A stretch of 64,000 nucleotides of DNA, taken from the NCBI GenBank assembly GCA_051047955.1, contig JBPGPT010000008.1, positions 310,001 through 374,000 of the forward strand, read 5' to 3'. Each line of letters opens with the position of its first letter. Within the stretch, counting starts at the first letter, position 1. Made by a program: the position numbers and the translations under genes. Positions 10,250 to 50,016 of this stretch are shown here, one piece after another. The DNA comes from Cystobasidiomycetes sp. EMM_F5 (lineage: Eukaryota). A model generated the notes under the pieces. It searched no databases and was not told where the DNA came from. It saw nothing but the letters and a program-made list of their open reading frames with translations.

Positions 10250-13200
10250 TCACCAGAAAGCACACCATCTGTGACAGATGTATGTCAATCGTGATCTTGC
10301 ACGGCATGCAATTTGCAAGAGGGACGTACCCTTGATACGCCAGCGCTAGATGCTCGACCTTGGTGGCGGACGTTATCAATCGAGACACCTGCTCTTCAAT
10401 GTCATGTTTACCGCCAAAGTCCGTCCCGACGAGTTTTGTTCTGACCCTGACAATCGCTCGTTGCGCTCGCGGCGTCAGTGTGGTCACTGCCCGCGGGTTG
10501 CCACTCTCGGTGTGTCGTCGTCGGGGACGGTAATGCTGTCGCAATACTGCAAAGTCGCCATCATCGATGACTTCGGGCTCTTCGTAGACTTCCTCGTGAC
10601 GGCTCTCATCGACTTGACGAGGATGCAGGACCAGGTGGGCGACCAGCGGGTCATGGAGGAACGAAGAAAAGACGGCTTCGACAGACTCTTTATGTTCTCG
10701 CATGACCCTCATTGTATGTTGCGAGCACAGTCTGAAATTGCCCTTGGTCCCAGTGGGACCCAAGCATCTTATCAACTGTCGCGTCAACCGGAATGGCACC
10801 CTCTCAGGGAATGTGTCCCGCTCGGTTGCGATCTCGAAGCTGTCTCCAAAATCGCTATCAGGAATAGCAGTCAGCAAAAAGAGCCAAAGCAGACCCGCAA
10901 TAGCCGTACATGTGAACACTGTCAACGATATCGACGGGTCAGAAGATACAGGAAGACCTTTTCCTCCGACTCACATTTCACCCGACTGTCGATCCATGAG
11001 TATGTTAGATGGATGGCGGCTGTGTGTTTCGGGTAAGCTGTGATGTTTGATACGTGGGGGCAAATGTGCTTACTCTCCAAGACCTAGGAGGTACCCAATC
11101 TATGAGAATGAAAGGTGCTGTTAGCAAGCCCTTGTATCAAGTCGTACAGTGCCATACCATCGAATTTGTGGCGAGCGACCTGGCATACGCTGTGCGTCTT
11201 TCCATCCAGCTAAGACAAGAGGTACCTTGACACACAGACGAAAGTAGCTTTATGTGAGCAAGATGTAGCACAGCGTCGTAACAAAACCTTACTCTTCCGC
11301 CAAAGAATCGAGGCTAGCTCATCACCTTCGGTGAGATCGGCAGCTAGCTCGAAAGCCTCTACACTCTGTATTGTGTTCAGGGATCCACGTGCTATCATTG
11401 GCGCAAACTGCAGTGAAACTCAGTGCCAGCTGCCAGCAAACATGGGTACGAAGCTTACGATGGCCTGCTGTTTAAGCTCTAGCTCCATAGTCCTGCCTTC
11501 TAAACGTCTAGCTGCTCGGCAGAGAGTCTGTAACGTATCGCCGCGTTCGAACCAGGAACACAAGCCTGTATACCGCGCTTAGCTCCAGTCTTTCTCAGAT
11601 GGTAAACAAAACAGAACATACCGGCATTGTGATTCAGCGGGATCACCGCATAGCGCACGATGCGAAGATGTCTACGCAGACTATCTTGATCGTTGGCCAA
11701 TAATGAGTTGACCAAGACAAACTGCATGCCATGTGAGCGTTAGTGCCGTGGCCACAATTTACATATTGGAAAGAGTAGAAGTACCAGCTGGCCGCAGCGC
11801 TCATCCATGCGCAGATCCTCCCTCGCCTTCAACAGGAATCTGTAGGTCTTACCATCGGACCCTCTCATGGTGAACTTTCGGGGTCTCTGTTTGGACGACA
11901 AAACCTCGACCACCCTATTAACTTCCACAATATGTACAGGATCACCTCCGTGCCGAACATAGGTACCTGAACCGTAGTACGAGGTAGAAGGGCGTGCGTC
12001 ATGTAACAGTAGTTGAAGAAGCGAAAGAGGCTTACCTGGCACTGAAACTGTCATGTTCCGCGCGGCTGACAATGTCGGAGCTACATCTGCAAGACTGAAG
12101 GATGTCGTGCCTTCCTTCGTTATCGACGTGCAGGTCTTGTGAATCGAGTGTAACTTTCGCCACATTGCCGCAAGGTCTTTTTCCGAATAATCGGGTTTCA
12201 GACATTTTTGGGCCAGTGCTGAGGCAGCGAAAGCATGGTCAATCATCCGATACGGTACCGAATGGACTGCTCATCGTCAACAAACCTCGAGCTGCATGTA
12301 AGGCGTCTCCGAGCTTGCCGACAAAGTGGCAGTCCTGCGGGGTCTGCGGGTTCTCGATGTCCTTGCACATTTCCTCGACAGCATATACGAGACCTTCTAC
12401 GTCTGCGAGATCGGAGTCAGATCCACGCCGGAAAGATCAAAGCATTATGGCCCACTTTTACCGTCTGATCCGAACAGATACTTGGCCGCACCCTCTATCG
12501 AATAAGCGCATCGCTCTTCCCAGGTCATAGAGGTGCGCAGTAACTCCTGATTGACCATTATCGCCTGGAATCCAATAGGGTCAGCTGGAGTTTGCTTTGT
12601 AAGATCCGTTGCAAGCGAACCTCCTCCACCAGCGTATTATCATACAGGCGCATAACATCCATTAGACGCCTTGCGACAGCTGCACGATCGCCAGAAGGAT
12701 ATTGCGCGACTGCGATCAGTGATGCAATCATTGTATGCGGGTGCGCTCTCCCAAGACGTCGCATTAGAGATTCTATGATCGGCTGCAATTGCGGCGATGG
12801 ATAGTTCAACTGTGCGCTCAATTGAGGTATGGCTTCCAGCCAGCAATCAATCGGCAGTTGGTCGAACGCGGATTTTGCTGCAGACGCCATGCGACTCCGC
12901 TGACCGTGCTTGAATATGACGGTAAGGACACCCAGAATGTCCTGAAGCGGATAGTTTGACGCTAATCTGATCATTGCGACATAGTCTGGCGGCAGGCGGT
13001 TTCAGCCAAGATCATACCGTATAGGCATGCACATACGCTCTATGGCAGCAACTGCAAGGTCGGTCAAACTGGTCTTTTCCGGGCTGTCCCGGACTTCATG
13101 AAGAAACTCGATAAGGGCCAGATTATTGGTCGCCAACTTGCGATAACCCTTCGGTGTCTGCCACAAACGCAGAGACCGCTCGTAATAGGTCTGACTGCGA

Positions 13201-16200
13201 GACAGTGCGTGCTGTTGGTCCGAGAATAGCATTCAGTTGAATTCCTCTCACGAGTCACAGCTAAGATTATCGTACCGCATTGTCTTGTCGAGCATAGTCT
13301 CCTAGACATTGCAAAGCTCGAGACAGAATCAGTTTGAGTTCATGAATATTACCGAGCGTTTGTTGGCTCTTTTTCGTGAGACGATTGCAACTCTCGAGAC
13401 GGTCGGCGAGCTTGCTGACGAGTTCTTCAATGCCTTCCGTGGCACCGACTTTATCGCCCGTATCTGCTACTAATCGGCAGCGCTCTAGTGTCAGACCAGG
13501 CCATTCCGAAACGGGCTGAGATAATCAAGGTCGTCAGTGTTGTGTTTGTCTTGCCCAACGTTAAATGACATACTATCGATGATAGATTCAAGGGACTCGT
13601 TGTGAGATCGTCCATTGCGCGTGCTTGAACCTTGAAAGCAAGATCGAGCCGCCCAGCCTTTCGAAGAATACGAGCATATCTAGTGATGTTTTTTACGTTC
13701 TCTGCCGGCGTCAGAACAATGGACTGTACATTTAGACAGCGATTGAGGATATCATCGTCTTTTTGTAATAGGCTGAACCTGGTCGACCAGAGTTCCTGGA
13801 TTAGAGGTCGCTCCGCTGAGTGTGACTGATAACGACCGCTGCTCCGGATTCATTAGCAAAATCCTAGAGAAGATCAACATCGCGTACGCTTCTTCCAACT
13901 CTGCCAGCAGCTGAGTGCGGACCATCGCCGCGTATGAACGGCCGGTCCGACTGTGTCTCACATTGACTGGCTCAAACAAAGGAGAGTATTCAGGATATGG
14001 CTGGGCGTTGTCTTCCGCCCAGAACCCACCGAGTTCGTCGCTCATTCGGTCCCGCGCTAGCCCGATGTCGACCAAAGCGGTCGGCAGGTCATGAGACAGC
14101 GTCGATGTGACCGCAGAGTACCATGCCTTCTCTGTCGGGTTCATGTCTTGGACAGCGGATGCCATAGTCGCGAATCTATTGGTCCGCCAGGCCGCCGTAG
14201 CAAGAAGAGGAGCAGTCAAAGGTTTCGTATGTAGCGGTTGGTTCTTGCCTTTCGACTCAGCAAAATCGACCAGTAAGTCCCATTCCTGCAATGCATGTAA
14301 CGACTAGAGCGCGAACTCTTAAGTGAGAGCAGAGCAGGCAATGCACGCAAAGAGGAACTCACTCGCATTACTCCTACAATTGCGTCTCCGTCGCCCGGGT
14401 TCCGTGACAGGGCTTCATCGAAAGTTTGCAGGTTGCTTTGTTGCACCTCGCCAATTTCTGAAAATGTTGTCACCGGTGCGTTTGTTATTTGTAGCAACCC
14501 TTGCGCGTGATCGGGCTCGCGGCTATGGAACTGCTCGTCGAATCGCAGTAGATCGCGAACGACTGCTTGAGTTCGATTCTGTAAATCAGAGGCTGAAGAA
14601 AGATCATCGAGCCAGGCTTGCATGTCATCCGAATTTCGTTTGAGCCACTCCGAGCTAATGTCGTTGTACTCCATTTCCGCATACCGAACCGCGCGATGCA
14701 TGAATAGGTGTTTCCAAGCGACCTCTTTTCTTAAGGTGGGTTTGATGCCGAGCTTAACGCTCATGCGGTCCAGAAAGTCAATGAGACTGTGAATAACATT
14801 AGCGGAGTCGTACTGAATAAGTTAAATACGCCATCGTACAAGAGAACAACATTATGTATTTCCGGCGTAGCGTCATCTCGCTGTAGTATTGTCTGCAACG
14901 AAGCTGTGATGTTGTGTTGCGTAACCACATCCAGGTCGTGCCAAATAGTATATGTGCCATAGTTAATGAGACTGCGTTGAAAGGTCTGATGAAGCTGAGC
15001 AACTGCCGCGGTCGCACGGATGTGCGGATGGTTGCTGTACTTTACGATTGCAGTGCCGAGTCCACCAAGCCAGTCAGTCCAGTCATTAGCGCAATCGCCA
15101 AGTGGAGGAGCGAAGGCAGCTTGAAGCGGGCGAGCGTCGAGTAGGAAGACAATGTCCTTTTCCGGCTCATCGGTTGCGGCAATTCTGTGTGTACGTCAGC
15201 TTGTGCTAATGTGAAATGAAACCGACTGCTAACCTCGGTATCTCGTTGGCTGTTCCCCGGAGATGACTGACATATAGCGGGTGATGACGAATATCGAAAG
15301 GCAAATCTTTCGCAAAGAGCTCCATGAAAACGATAGCTTCTGGCCCGCATTCTTTCATGACAATGCATGTTGCCCTTATTGCAGCCGCGCGGAACTCTTC
15401 TTCGTGGCAGAGCGGAACCAAGATGGGTAGAAGGCGTGTGAGGTGGGCACCAACATACGCACTGCACGCAAGAATGCCAAGACCATCCAGCGCTACAATC
15501 CGGGTTGCAACGCTGGTTCCGTGTTGAATGACTTCCAGCAAAGAGGGCAGAACAAGATGGACCCATTCGCGCAGGTGGTCAGACATATCGCATATGAACC
15601 GGATTGCAGATTGGATTGAATGATCTTGTCCAGTATCGCTAACCATGCTAGATGCGATTCGTGGTATGACAAGAGCAAAGTACTCACGGAAGTCAACACC
15701 CAATGATGCCGCCAGAGCAGATATTGTGTCAATAATGCAGTTGTTGGGCTGAAGTCCTTCATCCCAGCGCTAAAAGTAACGTTCGTCAAACCGACGCTCT
15801 GCATAAGCACGATTAGCAATCTTACTTGAAGCAATGTTGCCACCACCTGTGACGCTTTAGCTTCTACAGATCCCACAGCTCTCAGAATGAAGCCTAAGCC
15901 TGATATGAAGTAGCAAGTAGTCTTTACTTCAGTGTGTTGCTCGGCGATTGCTTGTAGGAAGCGTTCGATGATTGGGCCCGTGTACTTCTGGCTGCGTAGG
16001 TGGTTGGAAGGATCCCTGTATACTGCCACCAGTGCATCGACAACCTGATTGCGCTAAGTGAGCATGCGTTGGATTGCCTTATTAGACTTGTGTACTTACA
16101 GCGTAATGGATCTTTTCAGGCTGTGGCTCTCTCCAGATGGTAAGCAATTGACCGGTGAGCCAGTCCGCTATGAAAGTTGGTGCTTTGCATTTGACTTCAT

Positions 16201-19200
16201 CAATGTCATCAGAGATCAGGCCATTTTCGAGCGCTCCGGCATTCGTCGTCTCGTCGGGCCCGTCCACGATCTCCTGTACTACGAGATCCGCGATGTCAAG
16301 CCCTGACTGTATGGGCTTCGAAGCACCAATCGTCCCTAGCGCTTTCACAATCTCGCGTCGTGCATGTATTTCCTTTTCGACAGTAAGTAATCCAATCAAC
16401 AGATCGATAATATCGTCGCGAATGGTCGCCACCTCTGCGATACAGGCAGTTCCGTACACTAGCTCCGTCAAAGTTTGCACAGCAATGCGACGCTGCTGGA
16501 CAGATCCGGGCTCACGAAGAACCTGGCAGATAACATGGACGAAGTCCATAGCTTGCTTACGAAGCCCATCTCGCGCGTCTACCGATAGTCGACGAAGCAG
16601 ACGGAATCCGGCAATGACAATGTCTTCGGAGTCAGCCGTGCGGAACTGGAGTAAAAGGATGTCCACCGCCGGTCGCACATATAAGGCAGCAAGATCGCGG
16701 GCAGTGTCGAAGATGCTTGTTATGAGGTTGAGGTGGTGACATCTAGCAGCAGAGTGCCGTATTTCGTCCATGGTTGTCAAGAGACCAATAAGCTCGCTCC
16801 TCAAAGCGGGCATGATGATCGCGCTAGCGCCATCGTGCTTCTGCGGCCTTAATATTGAAGGGTGCGTAAGCACAGGTCGCCGCAAGACTTACAGAACACC
16901 TACAAACGCCCCAGAATTTTCAATATGGCCGCCTGCACTGTCATAGAGTTGTCGTTGATGGCAAACAGCAGCAGACGGATAGGCTCGGATTGTACGAGGT
17001 AGAGGTCGAAATGCTCATCGAGACAGGCCAGAGTCTCTTCCCGGATTTGCGGATCAGGATCAGCTATACCGATGCGTAGAAGTGTCTGCATTATATCTCG
17101 GGCGGGCCCAGAACTCGCATTTGACGATTGTGTATATGAATTGTTTACAAGGAAAGAAGCACATGCCTTCGTGGCTGTCCTGCGTGTTTCGGCATCTTCA
17201 TTGGTGGTATACGGAACGATATACTGTTGAACCCAGTTAAGCAACATGGGAACGTTGACGAAATCAAAGTGTGCAATCGTCTCCATGACAAGGTGCCGTT
17301 GACGTTCTTCGTCGGCTTGAGCAGTCTCTACGAGCTCGCGAGCTCGCTTAGGCGAGAGCGACCGACCTCGAGCCCGCTCGAATATGCTGCTGCTCCTACG
17401 GCGCGTCATGGTGGTTGGACGTCCCTCCCGCACTTCCACGACGGAAGCTCGCCGATCTCGAGCGGTGATTTTTGAGGAGCCTGGAATTGCCCATTCACGG
17501 AAAGTAGTGCCGCACAGGCTGACAGACAGAAGATCCAGTAAGCGGACTGAAGACATGCAACAAACGGCTCAGCCAAATGGTCTTTTCGGAGATCGACGTG
17601 ATTATTGCTTACGCCTAATATCGTACGCCAGCGCGGGTATGTTCTTTATGACTACGTCCAGAGTCGTAACGAGAGCTTCAGAAAGACCGCCTGAACACAT
17701 CGGCTCAAGGACAGCTGCGATGAATTCCTTCATTGGCGAGCCGAATGCCCGTACACATCCAGCAACAACAGCAAGAAGCGCGTCATGGAGCCCAGGTAGT
17801 CTTCGCTGCTGTACAAGGCCCTGCGTGAAGTTGAACACTATGCCGTCTAGATAGCCAGTGGCGCGCAGGCCGACCAAAGGTAGCAGTTTGGCGGTCGAAT
17901 GCAGAGCTAGTTTACGAGGCAAGTAGCGTCAGCATCGCCATTGATCATAGGGGCGAAAGCAACAGACCTGCGACCTGTTCTTTCTCTCGTTTAGAAGCAT
18001 CAGCGAGCCACGGGAAGACGGAGGATAGCCACTTGGAGCAAAAGGCTTCGGGATCGCGCGGCGCGCACAGCGCGACAAACTCCATGATTGATCTGTTTGC
18101 CGTTGTATCTCGATCCCGAACATCCAGTAATGGATCCCAAATGCATTCTATGGCCTCTTGCTCATCGGCAGGAGCCACCTTTGCAAGAGCGCAACATGCC
18201 AAGGCTCCCGCATGAAGTTTTGCAGGAGTTGCCATTGGTGAATGAATAGCTTTGATTGCAGTGGTTAGCAACTCATTGCGCGCCATAGGTCCCTCCTCCT
18301 GCGAGAGAGCCGATAAGCAGGCCTCAAGAGCGACTCGAGCTCCATCTCGTATGTTCTGCTTGGGATCAGTGAGAGCATGCGACCAGATATCCTGTATGGC
18401 CCGAGCAGCTTGGTCCCGCACGACGACAGCAGAGGTGGGTGTCTGCATCAGCTCAGTAAGCAAATAAATCGCACCCACACGCTTGCGTTCGCTGCGTGAT
18501 TCTGAATATGACGGATTAGTGATTCCCCTTAAATACTTCGATTATGCTATCTACTCGCCTTCGAGCCATTCGAGAATCTGTGACGTTTCCCTGGTCACAA
18601 GGGCTGCCATACCTTCCAGCGGAGCTAGTGCTGCAAACAACCTGGCAGCATCGGACATGATACTGGGATCGTTGCAAGGGATGAGTCGGATGAGAGCGGT
18701 TGCCAGCCTTACGGCCGACCGTGCATCTGGCGCCGGATGAATGGCAAGGATCTCGCCAATTGCAGCTGCTGCTGCCCATTTAGCATCGACATCTTCTGAC
18801 CCAGCTAGGGCAAGTAGATGGGTCTGAAACGAGTCGGATGTGTATCCCGCGACGGTGGCGGCGTGCATAGGACGAGCCGGTAAGAATGTCGGTGTATGCA
18901 CTCCTCCGTGATGCGGTAGCGCAGTGGGGGTGGTTACTCGACTGTTGGGTTTCAATACGGGCTTGCCGATAGTAGCGGACGGGGTTGCGACGACAATAGA
19001 AGTCTTGGGTAGGCTTGCTACTAATGATGGTGGATGGGCCTTGCCTTCACGCTCGCGGAGAAGAGCGGCTCGGAATTTGGCAGTAGCAGCCTGTCTTTCC
19101 TGTGGTTGACTATTACACATACAGAAAGTAATTCAAAGTCGGGATGCATGTGCCCATAATGATGGGAGATTAAATTATGTCAGCTGCAGGAATCAGCGGA

Positions 19201-19515
19201 CCTCAGGACGAATAGCTCGAGGCCTGCTCACCGGACACGAAGACCTAAAAGCAACTCCTCCAGGACGCTTGTGACCATAGGTACGGCATGGGCAAAGTAC
19301 GGAGACTGATTGTGGTGGATTTGGCGATCGTCAGCTAGCTTGAGGCCGTGCAAGGCTGGGAGCGGGTGGTGTGCGTGTACAGACAGAGGGCGGGCCGAGT
19401 GAGTTGCTGGCGGATGTCCATGGGCCCCGTCGCCCGCAGTATCCACGCCGGTCGCAGGCGCGCTGGCTAGGAAGCTGCGCCGGGCAGCCGAGGGGATGGA
19501 TATGCTGAGGGGCAT
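10250..19515 (-). CDS. TOR: TOR-family PIKK kinase, highly divergent (HEAT-FAT-FRB-kinase-FATC)
   Basis: IGIADPDPQIR and KALGTIGA (HEAT); WLEAIPQL and LGRAHPH (FAT); SKQRPRK..GSDGKTYRFLLKAREDLRMDER; spliced IGYLLGLGDRHPSNILMDR and IVHIDFGDSFE; ERVPFRLTR; FATC YQGWCAFW-TGA at 10250. The start codon and some N-terminal junctions are less certain. Confidence 0.92.
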
Positions 19516-20050: not shown

Positions 20051-21653
20051 TTACGGCTTCTCTACTGCTTCCCGCAGTTCCGACAACAAGAGAGCCCTAC
20101 TCTCATCGGCCGATTGCTCCGCCAATACAGCAAAAACCTTCTCCACAATGACCATGTAGCGATTCAGATTCGCTTCGCTCGCCCTGTCAGCCGGTGCGGA
20201 GTCCAGCAGCCATGCCACAGTGCCCACAATCTCGGGTTCATGCCCCCTTCCACCAGCGAACCCTGCAACACTGTGCGTAACTGCACAACCGAATGGCTGA
20301 GCAGACTGGGACCATACGAATCTGCTCGGGCAAGCGGCATTTTGCTCTGAAGTGTACCTGAGGGGAAACAGCCCCAGATTGGAAACCTCGAGCGACGAAG
20401 AGAACGGTCTTGAGGTCTGCGTACCCTGCAACAAGGCACTCTCCCACCCGTTTAGACTAGCTTTGTCATTGGGATCATTCGAATTGTCAGGCCACCAGTC
20501 CATCAACGCCCAACGTTCTCGACCCAGCTGCTTAACGTGCGGATCTATTAGATACTTGCCATACTCGCGCGCCAATGTCCAAAAATCAGCATCTTGAGCC
20601 AGCTGGTATTCATACGACGGCGTGGCCAGTACATAGTTGCCAGTTGCGTCTGGGTGACCTAGGAAATCACTGCGAGTAGACATCGGTGTGCTGAGCACGA
20701 CAGGCAGCTGAGAAGTAGATGTCTCGATGAAAAGAAGAGCCACAGAGAGTGCCGTGCCAAGGACTTGCTGTAAAGCCTGCACATTTCGAGCTTTACCAGC
20801 ACTTCGAATCATGGAGGTCCTGCTCGCTGATATACTGTACACCCGATACTTTGCACTAGCAGACAAAGGGTCCTTGCCGGATCCACAGGAGTCGTACAGA
20901 TTCTCGAGAGACTGATACGGCCAGTGATCAGAATCTACCCAGCCTAAGACTCGCGAAATGTAATTCGGTAGGATGGGCTTGAGGATTTCCTTTGCTACCA
21001 CGCTCAGGGTCAATCGGATGCTGGCTTTGATCTTTGTCGTAGCCTCAAACGCCGGTGAAAGACTGCCTCTACCATCGTGGGACGGTATCGGTGAGAGTCC
21101 TGCTAGTTTCAGCAGCAAATGCATGCCGCCCAAACCGTCCGTCAGAATATGGTGAATTGCCAGGGTCAAATACGATTCCCTTCCATCTTCCCGATTGTAC
21201 AATGTTACTCTCCACAGCTTGCCTGAAAGCACATCAAAGCTTGAAATTGCAGCGTACATCTCTCGTTGCATGATGTGCTGCATTTGCAACTCCCACGACG
21301 GCGCTTCGTCACGCAAGGGCTCGTCATGTAGTAGGCTGCTTGGCTCGATAGATGCTGTTTCAAACGATGGCTTGTTGGCACGGTAGTCGACAACGCGACA
21401 ACCCAGGAGCGGGTATGCCGAGAAAAGCGCGCCCAGTCGCTCGATTATGGCATCTCGCTTGGGCAGATCAGCAGAGGATGGATAGGTTAGTATATAAACG
21501 AGAACAGGGACTGCGCCGAGATTAGAGCGAGTCAATGAATAGCGTTCATGTCGCGATACTGCAACGGTTCAATCAAAGTCAGCTTCGGTAGTTACTGCCA
21601 ACTAAACAATGCAGCTTGCATGCACGGCCTTGAAGCTGAGACTGGCTTGCCAT
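20051..21653 (-). CDS. Alcohol acetyltransferase / condensation-domain-like CoA-dependent acyltransferase
   Basis: Near-intronless ~500-aa ORF with HHILTDG (HHxxxDG) motif, YPLL, LWRV and SLEVSNLG. A short first exon from ATG 21653 is spliced to LSRHERY. Confidence 0.78.
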
Positions 21654-25956: not shown

Positions 25957-27546
25957 ATGCGTCCATCGCTCGCAAGATGGACAGCTGATGCCTACAAACG
26001 CGGCAGCATTGCCAAACTCGTACAGCAGCATCATGCACAGTCTGCTAACACCCGCTCGTTGGAATCAGTACAAGTCCAGGCATGGATCCGTTCAGTACGC
26101 AAACAGAAGAAATACTCATTCTTGAGCCTCTCGGACGGCAGCTCGCACAGCGGCCTGCAAGCTGTCGTTAGCAATGATGTACTTGGAAACCTGTTGAGCA
26201 GCGAGAACGATGCTTCTGCAGGCCATTCACTAGCTACCGGTGCCAGCGTAAGGCTGCAAGGCAAGCTGGTCGCAAAGCAGGGTGGTCGCGCTACGAGCAT
26301 CGATGCGGTACGCGACAACAACGAAGTAGAGCTGCACGTCGAGGCTGTTGAGGTCCTTGGCGCTTGCGACGGTGCGGCCGTCTTATATGTGACGTCGTAC
26401 AACATTTTGAATATACCTTACCTCGCAGGATCTAGCTATCCCATGCAAAAGAAGGATCACAGCTATCCTTTCCTGCGAAGGAACGCTCACTTCCGCGGGA
26501 GAACAGCTTTAATCGCAGCGATGCTTCGTGTTAGAGACGCCATGACAAGATCGGCATACAACTACTTTGCGCAAGAAGGCTATCTCAACGTAGCTATGCC
26601 GCTCATTACCTCCTCAGACTGTGAAGGAGCAGGAGAAGTCTTCTCGATCGTGCACGGCCCGTCTCGCAAACCATTCTATGATGACCCAGCATATCTTACT
26701 GTTTCTGGTCAGCTGCACCTGGAAGCTATGGCCGTGGGCGGCGCACTAGGGCGAGCTTGGCACCTTACGCCAGCTTTTCGTGCGGAAAGAAGCGATACAA
26801 ACAGGCATTTGAACGAGTTTTGGATGCTTGAAGCAGAATTATCATTCACAGAATCGTTAGAGGATGTGCTGCAAACGGTCGAGAATCTCATCCGCCGCAT
26901 CAGCAAAGATGTTTCAAGTCAGCTGGAGCCAGTCCTGCGGACGTCTCTGCCGTCTGGTTGGGAAGCTGTGCAGTCGGTCAATAGAGCTCCGCGATGGCAA
27001 CGGATGACGTACGCTCAAGCCATTAAGGAACTCCAGCAAACCGCAAACGCCGAGCCTGAGCGCTTCCAACATACGCCAGCCTGGTCGAGCGGCCTACGAT
27101 CAGAGCATGAGCGCTTCCTTGCAGATAAATATGGCCCAACGTTCGTTACCGACTATCCCGTATCGCAGAAACCGTTCTATATGCGCTTGAACGATAGTCC
27201 TACGTCAGGCAATGCAGTCGGAGCAGTGTCAGTTGGCGCGCTGTCGTCCTTTGCTGATGCAGACGAGCCAACAGTCGCTTGTTTCGACCTGCTTGTACCG
27301 CGCATAGGCGAGTTGGTCGGCGGATCGCTTCGCGAGGAAAGGTTGGATAGATTGCGCGAGTCCATGGCAAATAAAGGCATGGATGAAACGAGCTACGAAT
27401 GGTATTTAGACTTGCGCAGGTACGGCAGTGTCCCACACGGTGGATTTGGGTTAGGCTGGGAACGGCTCGTGAGCTGGCTGACGGGCATAGAGAATGTCAG
27501 AGAATGCATAGCTTTTCCTAGGGCAGCAGAAGGTAGCAGATTTTAG
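25957..27546 (+). CDS. SLM5: Asparaginyl-tRNA synthetase, mitochondrial type
   Basis: OB-fold WIRSVRKQK..LSDGS, YPMQKK, PLITSSDCEGAGEVF, LTVSGQLHLE, FRAERSDTNRHLNEFWMLEAE, WYLDLRRYGSVPHGGFGLGWERL; basic N-terminal presequence; probable 57-nt intron at 26372-26428. Confidence 0.93.
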   Translation: MRPSLARWTADAYKRGSIAKLVQQHHAQSANTRSLESVQVQAWIRSVRKQKKYSFLSLSDGSSHSGLQAVVSNDVLGNLLSSENDASAGHSLATGASVRLQGKLVAKQGGRATSIDAVRDNNEVELHVEAVEVLGACDGAAVLYVTSYNILNIPYLAGSSYPMQKKDHSYPFLRRNAHFRGRTALIAAMLRVRDAMTRSAYNYFAQEGYLNVAMPLITSSDCEGAGEVFSIVHGPSRKPFYDDPAYLTVSGQLHLEAMAVGGALGRAWHLTPAFRAERSDTNRHLNEFWMLEAELSFTESLEDVLQTVENLIRRISKDVSSQLEPVLRTSLPSGWEAVQSVNRAPRWQRMTYAQAIKELQQTANAEPERFQHTPAWSSGLRSEHERFLADKYGPTFVTDYPVSQKPFYMRLNDSPTSGNAVGAVSVGALSSFADADEPTVACFDLLVPRIGELVGGSLREERLDRLRESMANKGMDETSYEWYLDLRRYGSVPHGGFGLGWERLVSWLTGIENVRECIAFPRAAEGSRF

Positions 27547-36910: not shown

Positions 36911-39900
36911 ATGGCGACGACGATGACCAGGTCTGCATCATCAGGCGGAGTGAGAATCACAAGGCATACCTCGTCGTCTGCCGCGACTGCGACCGCGACT
37001 GCATCCTCGTCAAACAACAGGCAGTACTCGGAACAGCCGCCAAGTAGTGCAGCAGGGTCAACGGCGACTGGTACCGCAGCAGGAGTCGCAGCGACTACAA
37101 CAACAACAACAACAACAACAAACGATGCACCCAAACTCAAGAATGACCGAGGAAAGTTGACAGAATTGCACGGGGAACCGCCGGTAAACATCAAGCGGAA
37201 TGAGAATGGCCATCTCGTGAGGGGAAGGATGCTCGGAGAGGGTGGTTTTGCAAGGGTATACGCAGCTATTGATAGCTTGAATGGTGCGACAAAGGCAGTA
37301 AAGGTCATTTCAAAGGAACAGCTAAAGAGCTCAAAGACGAAGGCAAAGGTGGGGAGAAGGAACGGAATTTCCATGATTATGTGCTGATGTTGCGTCTTCT
37401 TGTCCTGGACTCTTGTTCCTTCACGCTCGCATCCTTACACCCTGCCCTTCGATTTGGCCTTACTGGCACCTCCACTTCCTTACTTTGGCATTCTCCGCTT
37501 CCCCCTACTCTCTGAAATCATGCCTGATATTGCCGCTCCTCGGCCTGACTCCTCCTCTCAATTCGCTCATTGTTCCACCTGCTCCATCACTAGCTGTTTG
37601 CCGAGATCAAACTCCATCAAGTCATGGACCACCCCAACATCATCAAGTTTGAGTGCTGCTTTGAAGATTCCGAAAATGTATACATGCAGCTGGAGCTATG
37701 CGAGCACAACGTGAGTGGTACAAATTGTCCATCATTCTGTCCAAGACCTCCATGCTGACTTGAACGACACAGTCAATGCTCGACCTGTTGCGGAGGCGAA
37801 AGAGATTTACAGAACCCGAGACGAGATACTACCTGACGCAGCTCATCGGAGCGTCGCAGTACATGCATTCGGCATGCGTCATTCACAGAGATTTAAAACT
37901 CGGAAACCTCATGCTAGACTCGGACATGAATCTCAAAGTGGGAGATTTCGGTCTGGCAGCACTCGTCAAATTTCCTGGAGAGCGAAAAAAGTGGGTCGGG
38001 GATGGGGTACCTGTTACTCGATTGCAGAACGCTGACATTTTGGACAGGACCATCTGTGGGACACCTAATTATATTGCACCAGAGATTCTGTTTGATCAGA
38101 ATACTGGACATAGCTTTGAGGCGGACATTTGGTCAATTGGTGTCATTGTGTGAGTACCGCTCCGGAGCGTTCTCAGCTTGAAATTAACGCCTTTCTAGCT
38201 ACACCATGATTATCGGCAAGCCGCCTTTCCAAACCAAAGACGTAAAGGCCATCTACAAGAAGATAAAGGGGCTAGACTACAACTTTCCTTCAAATGTCGA
38301 CATTTCAGATCTCGCTATGGACCTTGTTGAAGCGATTCTCGACAGAGAACCGCAAAACAGGCCATCAGCGAGCGATATTTTGAACCATCCTTTCCAGTTC
38401 GACGGTGCTTTCCCTTCAAGTATTCCCGCCTCTGCCATGGATGTCGCACCTGATTTCAGTCGACTGACACCACGTATGAGCAAGGACAATTATACACGCG
38501 TTCGTATGCGATCGGGTGCGTCTCTGACAGTTTCATCGGAATCGACCTCGACACCCGTCATTCCCGAAGATGGAGAGGCCGAAGATGGCGAGTTCCTGGA
38601 GATGCGTCCCCATCACTCTCTCAAGCGCGCTTCGTCTGGTGCAGATGCAGTCCAGTCTATACCGGAACCGCCTGCCCAGGTCGTAGCAATGAGCAGTGGG
38701 ACTACTGTCGTCGCTCAGGAAATTGCAATCGAAAAGGAGGTCAAGAAGGTCTTGGATCCAGGATCCCCCATCTCTGAATTGCTCAAGAGTGCAAGGAAAC
38801 CGCTCATGGTCAGCCCGAGAGCGCTTGCGGCTCAAAGAGAGCGAGAAAAGAACGAGCTCGCTCGAAGAGCAGTCACTTCTGCTTCCGCCTCGTCTTCGGC
38901 CAAAGAAGGTCTCTTCCACCAGTATCGCGAAGCAGAAAAGGAGAACGCTCAACAGCAAAGAAGTAGGCCTGCATCGGCACGGAGTCAGGATGTGCCCAAA
39001 TCGAAGGCATCGTCGGACGAAGGCGAGACCGGTCTTGAGAATGCTGTCCGTGCCCTACGCGTTACGAACGGTACAGTCACTTCACCGAATAGAGCTCGTC
39101 CTACTTCATCGTCGACTGGCGGGAGGGACAAGCGGAAAGCACCTGCAACAGCCTCTTCCTCTTTTGTCGTTGCATCAGAACCGGGAGAAAAGCTCGTTCT
39201 CACATCGACAGAGGCAATGGAGCAGTGCTGGCGTACCCTCGAAGATACGATCGGATCTACGCCCCGTCCGATCAGACTCGAAGGTACGTTTGCTGTGCTC
39301 AGTTCATAATAACATCGACATACTTATTATATTCCTTGTTTGGCTTTCGCGTGAATCTAGAACCTGAATACGTCGCGTCACCCAAAGTATTTGTTACAGC
39401 TTGGATCGATTACACCCATAAATATGGTACAGCGTATCAGCTTACGGATGGATCAGCCGGAGTTTACTTCAATGATTCTACCACAATGATTATGGCACCT
39501 GGACGGCAGTAAGCATATTAACAACACCCAAGAATGGCTAGAGCTGACTTGTGTCCTCTCAGACGGTTCGATTATTTGTCGGGTCGGAAAGGCGCGACTT
39601 ACAATCGCAAGAACTTTGATATCCAATCGTTCCCAGAAGACCTCGATAGAAAAGTCTACCTGATGACCTATTTCGAGGACTACATGACGAAGACGCTGGA
39701 GAGGGATGTCGAATGGGTCTTTTCGGATGCATCCCGCAGCAGAAATATGGACTTTTTGGTGAAGTATTACCGCATGAAGAACGCAATCGTCTTCAAGCTC
39801 AGTAACGATGTTTTACAAGTACGTCTATATCCTCTGTGTCATCGGCATACTGCCGCTGATGACGATTTCAGTTCAATTTCTTTGACCACACCAAGATCCT

Positions 39901-44515: not shown

Positions 44516-47500
44516 TTACATCTCCTGTTCATCGCCTCCTTGCTCGTCATGAGACGCGCCAGCACTGAATGTATTCGCGGCTTCGTCCAGATACGCATCC
44601 GGGATATGGATGGCTTCACGCAGGAATTGTCGCTTGTCGCCCGATAAGGCGTCGCCATGACGGGCGAGGGTCTCCGTGACGGATTTTTCGCGACTTTGGG
44701 CACAAAGAATGTCAGACTCTCCCAAGTACAACCAATTGTCGCGCTTACGATTCCGCTGTGCCGAGATGCAAGAGCAGATACACCGACCACTCCCATAGCC
44801 CCAGGTATTCGACTTGATGAGCATAATTCAATAGTAGCTCCTCGCCAGCGCAGCTGTAGCCGCCTTCATCAGTATCGTCGAACTGCCGAACTCCGAGACT
44901 GTGGGTCAAGATGCGATATAAATGCCAAGATTGTCGATAATCGAACGGAGATGTGGAGAAGGCTCGCGGAGCCAAAGCATTCTCCAAAGTGTTGCTAGCG
45001 TCACAAAACAGCTTGATAAGTTCGTACTGTGCATCTTGAACACGACCAGTATCCTGCAGTAGCCATCGTTGCGACTCCGCTTGCAGTTCGTGCTGCGGAA
45101 GTGGCCTCGATAGCATGGGATCCTCCTGGCAATCATGAGAATACGAGCGTAGCGTAGTTGATATCGTTCTTTGTGTCTGACCATACCAGAATCTGATCGC
45201 TAATGCGCGCTTCCAGTCGAGACCTTCACTTATTACTACGGTTGAGCTAGTATCTGCTTCGCTGCTTGCTTGTATGCCCTTGGATTCGGTTACGTTTCCG
45301 GAGAGAAGTTCATACAATCTGCGATAAGATTTCGATATTTGCGCGTCTGCACGATGTTCGCGCCATTTCTGTAACTGTAGCTGAAGGTCTGCTTGATACT
45401 CCTCGTCATCGCCGGCCTGCATCAATAGTGTTGCGAGACGAATGTCGCCGCCCTGGACAGCCGCTTCGCAAGCACGGTCGACTTGGTTGCCAGTCATCAA
45501 TGTGAAGACGCGCTGAGCAATGCTGTCGTCTGATATTTGGCGAAGATCATTCTCTAGTGCAGCAGCGGTGGCGCCCCGCAGCCACTCCGAAAATGCCTCG
45601 CGCCGACGAAGGTTGTAGATGCGATCTTGTAGCTGAGCAGTCGCACCGGCAGGAATGCGCAGTTCAATTTCATCGAAGAGTGCTTGACCCAACCGCCACA
45701 TACCTGCTTCTGGCGATGGATCTGTCTTGTTGAAGCGGGAAGCAAAATGGTGAAAGCGCAGGTCTGGCATGGTGGAAGCTGATGGTAGTGACCCTGCTTC
45801 GATATTAAAATGTGTATGTTCCAGTTGTACCAGCAGCAGCCTAGTCGCAGCTTCGACGCTGTCTGAATCGATCTCCGGCAACAAGGCTGGTCGTTCGATG
45901 TGTACGGTCGTCAGAGAAGATACAAGAGCGTCTTCGGATAGTCGTTGAAGATGTCCAAGATGTATCAATTGACCCTGAGGGCCAAAGGACGCACGAAAAC
46001 AACGGCCAAACATCAAGCCGGCGTCTGCCAATTGACCTTCACGGTCTTCCGCGCAAGACTTGTGTTTGGGCACCTTCTTCCACTGTCGCAATGGCCTATC
46101 TTCCGGCGTAATTGGACTTTCTTCTCGCGGCTTAGGCGGAGCCTTGTTGCAGATGTCAGTAATGATCCGCTATATACGTTCCGAACTGCAAAGTTCACTT
46201 ACTGGGATGGCGAGTGCGCGCTCGAAACGAGCAGGAGGCGCAACAGGAGAGACGGCTCTCCGCGTTGGGGAAGGCGCAGGCGCCTCTACTGATGATGCAT
46301 CCCTCCCCCTGCCAAAAAAACTGGCTTGCATGACAGCAACCCGCTTTGGATCTAAGCCTAGTCGCTGAGCCAGCGGTTTCTGTTGCGGCATTTCTGAATT
46401 GCTCCGTAGAGATTGAGCCATCGAGCTTTGCCTCGATAAGCGTCCGACAGGAAACGAATCGAATTGTGCGCCCCTAGGTATTCTTGGAGTAGGCACTATG
46501 ACCGATCTGCGCCTTCTTGATGGTTCCGGTTCCTCCGTCTCTTCGTCGCGCGCTGTCTCCTCTCCTGAAATGTCAGAACTGGCTTCCTCGGCATCGCTCA
46601 TGGACTCGTCTAAAGTCGCCTGCGGAGGAGCGTCATCTATATCCGACAAGCTAGTATCGCTGACAGGTGACGCTGCTCTTTTCATACTGATCGCTGCTCG
46701 ATCCCGTCGATCCTGGACAGCCTTCTTCCGTAGCAGGGCAGGAGAGCTTACTGGAGCCGTCTCCTCTTCGATACTTTCCTGATCATCGCTGTCACTCTCG
46801 TCAAGTCCCTAACGCTTGTAGTTCAGCCTACGTAATACGGTTGCATATTTATATTCCCGCTTACATAACGGCTGAAATGCGCAACGTTGAATATCCACGC
46901 GCCAGTTTCTGCGACATAATCGACAAAGGTTGTTTCCGGCTTTTTCCTTAGCTTATTTATGAGTTGCTTAGTCCGGGCGTGCTGGGGGTCTTTAATTGGC
47001 TCGCGAGTAGCCTTATCCAATGGCCAGCAGCCGTAGAGAGTCACGGTAGCTGGTACATTGAGTCCCTGACCCACTTCGGGCTTCTGATCTTCGTACTTGC
47101 CGGGGTATACCATTACTTCGCGGTCTTCGATAACCACAACTCCGCCGAGCAGTTCGCGTACACTTGTCAGCCCCGCAAGATCAGCTGGATCCTGCCAGAC
47201 CACACTCCCGAAGCCTTTGCGACCAACTTCAAGGTTAATGACATCCGACAATTCCCGGCTGGGCATGGATTGTAGCGCTTTGATGGTAGGTTTGGTGTAG
47301 TAGTCACCCTCCGAGAGCGCCCGTTCGTGCAAGCGTTCGGCACTCTGCGGTGCATCGTTGCGAGGCTTGCCGTTTGTACGGGCTGCAGCGGAAACCTCAG
47401 CAGATGGCGCGGAGGCTGCGGCCGCAGGTGGCGCAGGCAGTCTATTCTGTGACGTTGAGCGTTCCGATACTTCAGCGTTAGGGTTGAAATGTAGGCCGTT

Positions 47501-50016
47501 GGCGGGCGTGCTGTTTACGCTTGTGGAAGATCCTTCAATTTTAGCTGCTGCTGGGGTTGCTGAACGGGACTCCGATCGATTCTTGCTGTCGATAACTAGT
47601 TTCTTGACACTAGTTCTGGTAGCGAAAGCTTGCGGGCTCAAATGGAAGTGTTGAGGCTCGGGCGTGCTGACCATATTGTGAGAAAGTGACGGAGACGCTG
47701 ATCGAGTGCTGGCGTTGATCGGAGTCCCAGGCGTTGTGAAACGGCTAGCAGAAAGACTAGGGGATGAAGTCGACGTTGTAAAGCCGCGTAATTTAGTAAT
47801 TCTGGCTGCAGATTTGGGTGTACTGCGATAAGAAAGCGCCACGAAAGGCGGCTGCTTTTTCGAGGAATCACTTAAGGACGGTGCTGGCGGAGCCTGCTGA
47901 AGTCCCGACGTTGTTACTGGCTGAATGTTGGCAAAGATCGGGTTATTGCCATAGGGATTTATATCGATAGATGCTTGAATGGGCTGCAGATTCTGCTGCT
48001 GTTGCGATTGTTGAGACTGCTGCATTTGATTTTGTTGGCCGAGACTTAATGTGGAGCCTAGGCTTCCTCCAAAGAGATTGCTAGCGGGAGCCTGTGTCTG
48101 GCCAAGATTACCAAAGAGGCCAGGTTGGGTATTGCCAAAGAGGCTCGTTTGCGCGGGTGCTGCTTGTTGCGCCTGGGTAGCCCCGCCGAAACTGAAAGAT
48201 GGCGCCGCTGGGGCTACGGTTGCATTGTTACCGAACGAGAACGGAGCAGCTGGTTGATTTTGTTGTTGCTGTGTTTGACCAAGGTTACCAAACAGCGAGG
48301 GGGCTGTAGGAGCAGTAGTAGAGCCGGCGCCGAATAATGGCTTTGCAGTAGCGTTGTTGTTGCCGAACGCAGACGTTCCACCTGCGCCGAATAGACCGGT
48401 CGTTGGCTGCTGTTGCTGCTGTTGAGGCTGGCCAAAGAGCGATGTGGAGGCAGGCTGAGTCGTTGCAGTGTTTGCTGCGCCAAACCCACCAAAGGCGGGT
48501 TTATTGTCTGTCGCGGGGTTTGTTCCAAACCCGAATGCTGGTTTAGCAGCCGTACTACCAAAAGCATTGGCGGTATTCTGGGTATTTGCAGCGCTACCGA
48601 AGCTGAAGGCCGGCGCAGGCTGAGTTTGATTTGTAGCTTGTCCGAATCCACCAAATGTACTCTGGGCGGGTGCAGTGGTAGTCGTAGTACCGATAGTCGC
48701 ACCGAATTTGAGAGGTTGCGCTTGCTGATTGTTCGTCTGCCCGAATCCACCAAAAGCAGAGGGCGCCGCAGCAGTACTGCCAAATGTCGAAGTGCTCGCC
48801 GCTGGCTGGCCGAAAGGTGTGGATGTGGCCGTCCCGAGACCGCCTCCAAAAGGAGAACTAGCAGCAGGCTTTGCGCCGAATCCGCCAAAAAGGCTTCCTG
48901 ACGTGCTTGGCTGGGCTGCTGGAGCTTGTTGTCCGAAAGTCAGCCCTCCGCTGCCGCCAAAGCCGGATTGTGTCTGAGCAGCCGGTGCTCCAAATGACGT
49001 CGAGGCTGCACCAAAGAGACCGGTCGATTGTGCGGCCGGGGCAGTCTTTCGGTTCTGCTGATAATCCTGCGCGCGTAATTCCTGAAAGTGCCAACAGCGT
49101 CAGTCTAGTTATTGCGGCTCGAAGATGCGTGCGGAACTACCTCGGGTGAGATATGCCAGTACATAGGAAGAGCAACGATATTGTCAAAAAGTAGATTCTC
49201 GCCCTTCAGCTTGGTATCTGCAGAGGTCTGGTTGCGGGCATCCTTCCACATCTTTGGACGCGTGGGGTCATTTGGCATGGCCGGCAAGTCTGCGGTGCCA
49301 TTCTGCGGGATCGGGCATGATACATTTGGATTGACGAAATCGTTTGGATCGGCATTATTGGTCGCGGAAGCGCCAAAGCCGGTCGCTGGTTGCGCCGACT
49401 GTCCGAACAGTCCGCCTCCGCCTATTGCAGGCTGTGTGGCAGCAGGAGCTCCGAACGTAAACGCGGCTGGCTTGGCCTGCCCGAACAGCCCTCCTCCGCC
49501 TTGATTTGCTGTGCCGCCAAACGCAGGCGTCGAGGCCCCAAACCCAGACGTGGAGGCATTCGCGGTACTGGCAAAGGTTGTTCCACCGAATGTGCTGCCT
49601 GTATTAGCAGTATTGCCTGCAAGAAGGTCGGCAGGGCCATTCATGTCAGACTGAGTTCAGAAGCAGTTCCCAGTGCAGAACCGAGGTAAGCCAAGTCGTA
49701 CGAACCAAAGAGACCCGTCGACTGCTGCTGCGGTTGCTGCGGCTGCCCGAAAGGTGTCGCGCCAAAGCCTGCGCGTTCGTTTCAGTTGACCATACATATG
49801 GCCCCAAAGTATGCGCGACGGCGGGAGGTTTGCATTGTGATAATCTCGGCGTCAGACCAATATGTTAACGGCGCTGTATGGCCATATCGACGCACCTGTT
49901 GCTGCTGGCTGAGCTGCTGGAGTCCCGAAACTGAACGTCGTTGCTGGCGGCTGCTGCTGCTGCTGCTGCTGGTTGGCCGTGCTGCCAAACGTGAAGCCTG
50001 AACCACCAAAGGCCAT
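44516..50016 (-). CDS. NUP98: Nucleoporin Nup98-Nup96 precursor (Nup145/Nup189)
   Basis: MAFGG start, GLFG/FG repeats, GLEBS-like SPE|ELRAQDY, ASIDINPYG, autoproteolytic domain KPEVGQGLNVPA...VAHFSRY|GL, Nup96 motifs DAGLMFGRCFRASFGP, GDIRLATLL and LDWKRALA. Confidence 0.95.

Follow-up and report, generated by a model that had tools for sequence, protein, structure and literature searches.

A TOR-like gene with an intact reading frame

The stretch of DNA analysed here, 64,000 nucleotides of contig JBPGPT010000008.1 from Cystobasidiomycetes sp. EMM_F5 (hereafter the window, whose numbering is used throughout), carries on its minus strand, from 19515 to 10250, a gene resembling that of the protein kinase TOR. 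A preliminary description made from the letters alone had proposed a strongly divergent yet catalytically intact TOR at this place, with transcript frameshifts as the sign by which a pseudogene would be recognized. At the level of the gene model no frameshift or stop is required: in the predicted splice model the reading frame stays open through 29 exons and 28 introns, all GT-AG, and a coding sequence of 7.6 kb yields a product of 2522 aa. The coding sequence extends from 19515, the first ATG of the open frame, to 10253, with the final codon (Trp) at 10255-10253 and the stop codon at 10252-10250. Among the introns, 27 of 28 measure 49-69 nt (median 58), the exception being intron 1 with 122 nt.

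The model was obtained by chaining stop-to-stop open reading frames (ORFs) of at least 25 aa, between 19900 and 10000, through GT..AG introns. Intron candidates were ranked on two scores, the splice consensus and the fit to a profile of 30 full-length canonical TORs, and the kinase part was read base by base. Several junctions in the weakly conserved N-terminal and FAT parts are uncertain, and the start codon may be Met1 or Met80. Two introns, 12035-11967 and 14029-13967, are in frame and free of stops; their excision adds 23.6 and 16.9 bits to the profile score and yields VPG|TY, the same as in canonical TOR.

A micro-exon of 9 nt (10918-10910) lies between introns 10974-10919 and 10909-10855, both of them GT..AG and each with a CTGAC branch motif. 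It encodes the Val and His of GE-IVH-IDFGD together with portions of both adjoining Ile codons. Merging the two introns into one would leave three residues fewer in the strand preceding DFG, and the micro-exon is supported because the uninterrupted relatives P0025 (GEMVHIDFGD) and P0212 (which starts MHIDFGD) retain those residues.

As a separate observation, introns 11020-11073 (GLG|D) and 11408-11458 (before the LST8-binding-element region) lie near match breaks in long-intron TOR genes from metagenomes (loci L034-L038, L041, L043 and L046), and another near-coincidence falls close to the equivalent of profile position 317. Such coinciding positions may be ancient shared introns; they were used as support for nothing in this work.

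Domain organization and catalytic motifs

The exon ORFs are collinear with the 30-TOR profile over positions 38-2356 of its 2384, and the spliced model of the coding region, 10250-19515, gives one single profile domain (positions 38-2353, residues 174-2522). The HEAT-FAT-FRB-kinase-FATC order named in the preliminary description is thus present in full on the minus strand, collinear with canonical TOR. Upstream of the first profile-aligned residue lie 173 residues (18875-19515, crossed by intron 19231-19110) with Pro-, His- and Ala-rich stretches, which bears out the long N-terminal additions of that description. The Pro/His-rich stretch within exon 2 is in frame, and a search there gave no convincing hidden intron. 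Should translation begin at the alternative Met80 (19278-19276, MVTSVLEELLL), residues 1-79 would be 5′ leader.

The HEAT-repeat region (residues 174-1268, 15184-18874, profile positions 38-1080) includes the motif EWLEGDERKR and an mTOR_dom-like part. It is followed by the FAT region (residues ~1269-1990, 12621-15183, profile positions 1138-1820), whose middle part matches weakly, and by an FRB-like four-helix region (residues 1991-2100, 12109-12564), recognized by alignment to human mTOR and the 30 canonical TORs. The PI3K/PIKK-type kinase domain (PIKK, phosphatidylinositol 3-kinase-related kinase) covers residues ~2123-2422 (10614-12042), as delimited by alignments to chains of the Protein Data Bank (PDB), Pfam and the splice reading. 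After a linker at 10404-10613, which holds the basic motif RPRRRHTES (10523-10503), the FATC domain (10253-10403) was identified by Pfam and by alignment to the mTOR C-terminus; it is interrupted by a 61-nt intron (10329-10269) and ends in AYQG|WCAFW.

Pfam was scanned on single exons only, with curated cut-offs. Above the cut-off were PI3_PI4_kinase (2.3e-15), FATC (5.1e-06), FAT in two exons (3.3e-07 and 4.8e-05) and HEAT (5e-05), while mTOR_dom (4.5e-05; 23.9 vs 27.6 bits) and FRB_dom (0.0045; 17.7 vs 24.7 bits) fell below it. HEAT_ATR matched in the FAT region (3.2e-05).

The ATP-binding Lys, the catalytic loop DRHPSN and DFG are all intact by mTOR alignment and by reading of the junctions in the DNA, as had been described for the spliced gene; DFG is reached through the micro-exon, of which the preliminary description made no mention. 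The Lys (codon 11829-11827) is the equivalent of K2187, because FLLKAREDLRMDERCGQ matches human mTOR FLLKGHEDLRQDERVMQ (2184-2200) residue by residue. GLG|DRHPSN (11084-11004) is interrupted by a 54-nt intron (11073-11020). IDFGDSFEIAT, with DFG from 10853, aligns with IDFGDCFEVAM of mTOR, so that the change from DFGDCFEVAM to DFGDSFEIAT noted earlier is seen in this alignment as well.

Assignment to TOR among the PIKKs

Compared with solved structures, the exon holding the kinase C-lobe and FATC matched mTOR at 3e-24 and yeast TOR2 at 1.3e-21, ahead of ATR (5.5e-12), SMG1 (~1e-10) and ATM (1.8e-10); the N-lobe exon gave TOR at 3e-10, SMG1 at 5e-06 and ATR at 1e-05. The kinase exons therefore match SMG1, ATR and ATM chains too, which is what a PIKK of one of those classes mistaken for TOR would show, but the matches are less strong and in the C-lobe TOR leads by at least 12 orders of magnitude. 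SMG1 is likewise a PIKK with an FRB-like region preceding its kinase domain. It carries a very large insert between the kinase domain and FATC, whereas the linker here is short, ~70 aa, as in TOR, and its E-values to the kinase exons are far weaker than those of TOR. Given in addition the collinearity with the TOR profile along the whole gene and the weak match to the TOR-specific mTOR_dom, we reject such a misassignment, which would be the least credible account of this gene.

With canonical TOR (human mTOR; S. cerevisiae Tor1 and Tor2) the gene shares the domain order, the length class and the collinear profile positions 38-2353, the catalytic Lys, DRHPSN and DFG, and the FATC end GW-x-x-W; its best PDB matches are mTOR and TOR2. 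The gene specifies a complete and probably active protein kinase of the TOR family.

Degree of divergence from canonical TORs

In the C-terminal 620 aa, identity between the model and the canonical TORs compared is 33-39% throughout; a TOR from Xylariaceae, by contrast, reaches 53-60% identity there with its mussel, Dictyostelid and oomycete counterparts. In the full-length alignment, its median identity to the 30 canonical TORs is 0.25 (range 0.19-0.28), against a median of 0.34 among the canonical sequences. The TOR profile scores it at 1413 bits and scores all 10 canonical TORs outside the training set at 2422-3116 bits, about twice as high. The named full-length TOR matches came from a mussel, a Dictyostelid, two amoebae, two oomycetes and Xylariaceae, with no basidiomycete among them.

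Conserved columns show the same divergence. The model retains 67 of the 72 columns invariant across the 30 canonical TORs (0.931, against 0.935 for the lowest canonical sequence in a leave-one-out count), and 176 of 228 columns conserved at ≥90% (0.77, where the canonical leave-one-out minimum is 0.85 and the median 0.95). In a first version of the model, between 0.56 and 0.82 of the 80%-conserved columns were kept in each of eight regions, compared with canonical means of 0.87-0.93; the loss was even across regions, with FATC and the kinase core preserved best. By identity, profile bits and conserved-column counts alike, the strong divergence at normally near-invariant TOR segments asserted in the preliminary description is now measured. 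That description also took a branch length comparable to TORs of related species as the mark of an ordinary TOR; the branch here is far longer than those of canonical TORs.

As a control for lineage-wide drift, we used the neighbouring Cdc5/polo-like kinase gene (38206-39309, plus strand), whose kinase domain, aligned to human PLK1 over 275 aa, obtains 267 bits. Because this neighbour is conserved normally, the divergence is specific to the TOR-like gene. The NCBI model P0022 of the Cdc5/polo-like gene comprises the kinase domain and two polo boxes.

The FRB region and rapamycin

Within the FRB-like region, the helix of the drug pocket aligns to mTOR 2093-2108, with T2098 replaced by Ala, D2102 by Arg, Y2105 by His (12150-12148) and F2108 by His (12141-12139), and W2101 kept (12162-12160). 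The residue equivalent to S2035 is Ala (12486-12484), because EASRLYF reads GAAKYLF in the alignment with the 30 canonical TORs; the exon of the first FRB helix, searched on its own, retrieved no mTOR chain at E up to 10. Mutation of S1975, W2041 or F2048 of ScTor2 gives rapamycin resistance, and these residues, together with the phosphatidic-acid residue Y2105, are given as conserved across all fungi examined in the part of that survey dealing with them (PMC2997006). Among the three ScTor2 positions one is kept here, the Trp, while Ser has become Ala and Phe has become His. Canonical TOR thus has the residues of ScTor2 S1975 and F2048 and of mTOR Y2105, whereas their equivalents are replaced in this gene. 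With Y2105 and two of the three positions linked to resistance altered, no binding of FKBP12-rapamycin is predicted, and the TOR-like kinase is probably insensitive to it.

A family of related sequences

The last exon was compared by HMMER with 1.84 billion representatives and gave 2886 matches at E≤0.001, two of them below 1e-30; these two are short fragments that share derived motifs with the gene. A profile of four members was then scored against 8000 candidates, of which 1958 matched at E≤1e-10. In the best 120 of these 1958 matches, which were the ones inspected, 15 clusters stand at 171-314 bits, and the best canonical fragment at 159. The short clusters P0226 and P0263 also carry the family motifs, so that the family has at least 17 clusters, all from Logan, ENA or JGI assemblies.

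Its hallmarks are FRLTRQ-x-x-CLGP, FRLCSQ, ESIEAVFSSF-x-HDPL-x-QHLVLNPRQL, IGTP-x-x-RF-x-TRRRKT and LSPRAQRVV, where canonical TORs have the counterparts FRLTRML, FR-x-TCE and LEAFV-x-DPL-x-NWRL. What sets the family apart from canonical TOR as derived is the first two of these hallmarks, the pattern EAVFSSFLHDPL-x-x-H-x-x-L-x-PRQ and the conserved basic motif of the linker. This last motif, IGTP-x-x-RF-x-TRRRKT, is kept in P0077, P0213, P0219 and others within a linker that is otherwise variable, and corresponds to RPRRRHTES in the window; at a guess from its form alone, it may be a regulatory phosphosite for a basophilic or proline-directed kinase.

Of the 132 columns compared, 41 reach ≥90% conservation in the family; among these, 20 hold the canonical residue, 7 are fixed shifts (in NWRL, for instance, His stands in place of Trp) and 8 are conserved nowhere but in the family. 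Family members share a median identity of 0.57 with one another, canonical TORs one of 0.54, and comparisons across the two groups give 0.35. Judged from these columns, the pattern is that of a functional protein under shifted constraint rather than of one in decay, and the existence of a conserved clade that has its own constraints favours a specialised function.

Other searches returned no further members. A metagenome scan with the family alignment found 46 loci, all canonical TORs and none with the family signature. The last exon, searched against longer proteins, gave 13 matches among 450 candidates, all of 327-2000 aa, none of the family and none from EMM_F5, and an alignment query gave 18 matches among 7999 candidates, again none of the family, its query words coming apparently from the canonical TOR N-terminus only. 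The ESM Atlas yielded no usable match. Among open-access papers and preprints, none was found that describes a TOR-like family of this divergent kind from Cystobasidiomycetes or Pucciniomycotina. Taken together, these results suggest a distinct and conserved TOR-like clade that is so far undescribed.

Phylogenetic placement

In a C-lobe tree (49 rows, 192 columns, LG+F+G4), the family, with 18 rows, is a single clade with a stem of 1.26 and an ultrafast bootstrap (UFBoot) of 99, and lies outside the canonical TOR rows when the tree is rooted on the ATM-like P0010. For this tree P0010, two Coemansia rows and P0160 were crudely trimmed to their last 200 residues, and P0160 sits on a very long branch (8.97) that makes its placement unreliable. 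In trees from FRB to the end of the protein (44-45 rows, ~530 columns, LG+C20 PMSF, quick search), the family again occupies one side of a single branch (SH-aLRT 97-100). With the outgroup removed, it attaches between Neoconidiobolus plus Ascomycota and Mortierella plus all others, with low support, and the branch that connects it with the canonical TORs amounts to ~3.5 changes per column in the unrooted tree. The canonical rows of the trees were 18 named and 12-13 unnamed sequences, and the remaining listed canonical fragments were left out. A FastTree analysis (112 rows) gave the model a position amid other rows with long branches, which we do not trust.

Approximately unbiased (AU) tests were run with fast IQ-TREE searches under LG+F+G4, a model more prone to long-branch artefacts. 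Joining the family to all 10 fungal rows gave the best likelihood of the four trees (p 0.58), a grouping with Melampsora gave p 0.57 and the free tree p 0.40, and a grouping with Melampsora and Ascomycota gave p 0.045. These results therefore allow a fungal origin, even one within Pucciniomycotina, and do not demand an ancient one.

Host and neighbouring genes

EMM_F5 is a yeast isolated from leaf surface; its Illumina assembly of 18.6 Mb has a BUSCO completeness of 86.4%, and it lacks a closely related sister with a sequenced genome (PMC12697161). Neighbouring ORFs of the window, looked up by exact sequence, lead to NCBI records of Cystobasidiomycetes sp. EMM_F5. Next to the TOR-like gene, immediately on its upstream side, is an open frame of 505 aa (20051-21568, minus strand) with a weak match to the Condensation domain (1.1e-05), below the cut-off; its ATG-started version had no exact sequence match in the protein collection. 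An ORF of 529 aa at 25957-27546 (plus strand) shares a 90% cluster with the NCBI protein P0015 (935 aa, 'glycosylphosphatidylinositol anchor biosynthesis'), which contains a Peptidase_C13 (GPI8-like) domain, a class II aminoacyl-tRNA synthetase core and an anticodon OB fold; the deposited annotation seems here to have fused two neighbouring genes. The ORFs at 44745-46013 and 46823-48025 (both minus strand) share a single 90% cluster with an NCBI protein of 1632 aa containing FG repeats, a Nup98-96 autopeptidase and Nup96; a tandem duplication at 44745-48025 was rejected, the two ORFs being exons of one nucleoporin gene.

Discussion

We favour the view that the gene belongs to a family of specialised TOR paralogs, probably insensitive to rapamycin, and put the probability of this at roughly 0.6. 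The view is based on the gene-specific acceleration, the even loss of conservation at partner-facing positions, the remodelled FRB and the family-specific constraint. A kinase of this sort would phosphorylate Ser/Thr as TOR does and would not respond to FKBP12-rapamycin on account of its remodelled FRB. As TOR-conserved positions are lost evenly over HEAT, FAT and FRB, its partners or substrates would be altered, and the paralog would act beside a canonical TOR, outside the classical TORC1 and TORC2.

Such a gene would have precedents. Some trypanosomatid TOR paralogs are strongly divergent and work in complexes other than TORC1/2. According to the sections of PMC2997006 on TOR copy number, Leishmania major and Trypanosoma brucei have three Tor paralogs, which shows that one cell may hold several kinases of the TOR family, though in a lineage unrelated to the present host. 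The same sections describe independent duplications of TOR in several fungal lineages, one basidiomycete included (PMC2997006). A paralog in EMM_F5 would be a like event to the pairs of S. cerevisiae, Schizosaccharomyces, Batrachochytrium dendrobatidis and Pleurotus ostreatus, that is, a lineage-specific extra copy, and those extra copies are described there as having a sub- or neo-functionalised role (PMC2997006). That account gives the FRB resistance residues as retained in the species examined, P. ostreatus, B. dendrobatidis and both model yeasts with paired Tor paralogs among them (PMC2997006), whereas the gene in the window is much more divergent, has these residues changed and is the one copy known here.

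Several points weigh against a specialised paralog. Paralogy is derived from prior expectation and from the pattern of divergence; the FRB evidence comes from one gene, since the other family members do not cover that region; the trees do not place the family; and its join with the outgroup was flagged as two long branches meeting. Moreover, 93% of the universally invariant TOR columns are retained, near the 93.5% of the lowest canonical row, which leaves room for a sole, fast-evolving TOR. The preliminary description had left the choice between a fast-evolving second TOR and a lineage with remodelled TORC1/2. Its common ground stands, in that the gene is intact, of the TOR family, catalytically complete and on a long branch; as for the choice itself, we lean to the former and regard the latter as possible but distinctly less probable. 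In this latter case the gene would be the fast-evolved ortholog and sole TOR of the yeast lineage, TORC1 and TORC2 would be assembled on a remodelled kinase, and the 17 clusters would be the TOR orthologs of relatives. All domains and catalytic residues are kept, as this would require, the family is both diverse and constrained, and neither a grouping with fungal TORs nor a position as sister of Melampsora is rejected; no canonical TOR of EMM_F5 came up in any search, though none of them had the reach to retrieve one; the genome paper gives no sister taxon and a BUSCO completeness of 86.4% (PMC12697161). Yet in open-access papers and preprints we met no case of a free-living fungus whose single TOR is strongly divergent, FRB residues given as conserved in all fungi in the relevant part of PMC2997006 are altered here, the evenly lost positions lie in the HEAT, FAT and LST8-binding regions used for TORC assembly, and the Cdc5/polo neighbour has not drifted. 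The family's internal median identity, about equal to that of the canonical TORs of all eukaryotes, would imply a sustained high rate within one fungal group. That a group of free-living basidiomycete yeasts has as its only TOR a kinase without the rapamycin pocket and without about one quarter of the ≥90%-conserved positions seems to us doubtful, marginally more so than the general case of a sole TOR.

An origin deeper still, as a separate PIKK branch or TOR-like paralog that predates the fungal radiation and was kept in few lineages and lost elsewhere, would account for the position outside canonical TORs with an ATM-like outgroup, for the length of the connecting branch and for an internal divergence as deep as that of canonical TORs of all eukaryotes. 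The outgroup placement is, however, a classic long-branch artefact and was flagged as such; without the outgroup the family stands next to fungal TORs with low support, and the best-likelihood tree of the four unites it with fungi. None of the 46 metagenome loci has the family signature, and EMM_F5 is the one named organism among the family matches listed. We consider this origin unlikely. A decaying duplicate, whether pseudogene or gene on its way to loss, would agree with the high divergence in every domain, but a coding sequence open over 29 exons with canonical splice sites, intact catalytic motifs and family-specific positions conserved in relatives make it very improbable, and we reject it.

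Among eukaryotic kinases TOR is the standard example of one that has hardly changed. The gene described here is further from fungal TOR than fungal TOR is from the TOR of an amoeba or an oomycete, and still it belongs to a conserved family, which offers a natural experiment on the parts of TOR that serve kinase function as against complex assembly and drug binding. If the gene is a specialised paralog, it would be a TOR-type kinase outside the classical complexes. If it is instead the only TOR of its host, TORC1 and TORC2 would be remodelled and naturally insensitive to rapamycin, and would prove rebuildable on a very different scaffold, the more surprising outcome. Since the host is a harmless and culturable leaf yeast, direct testing is possible.

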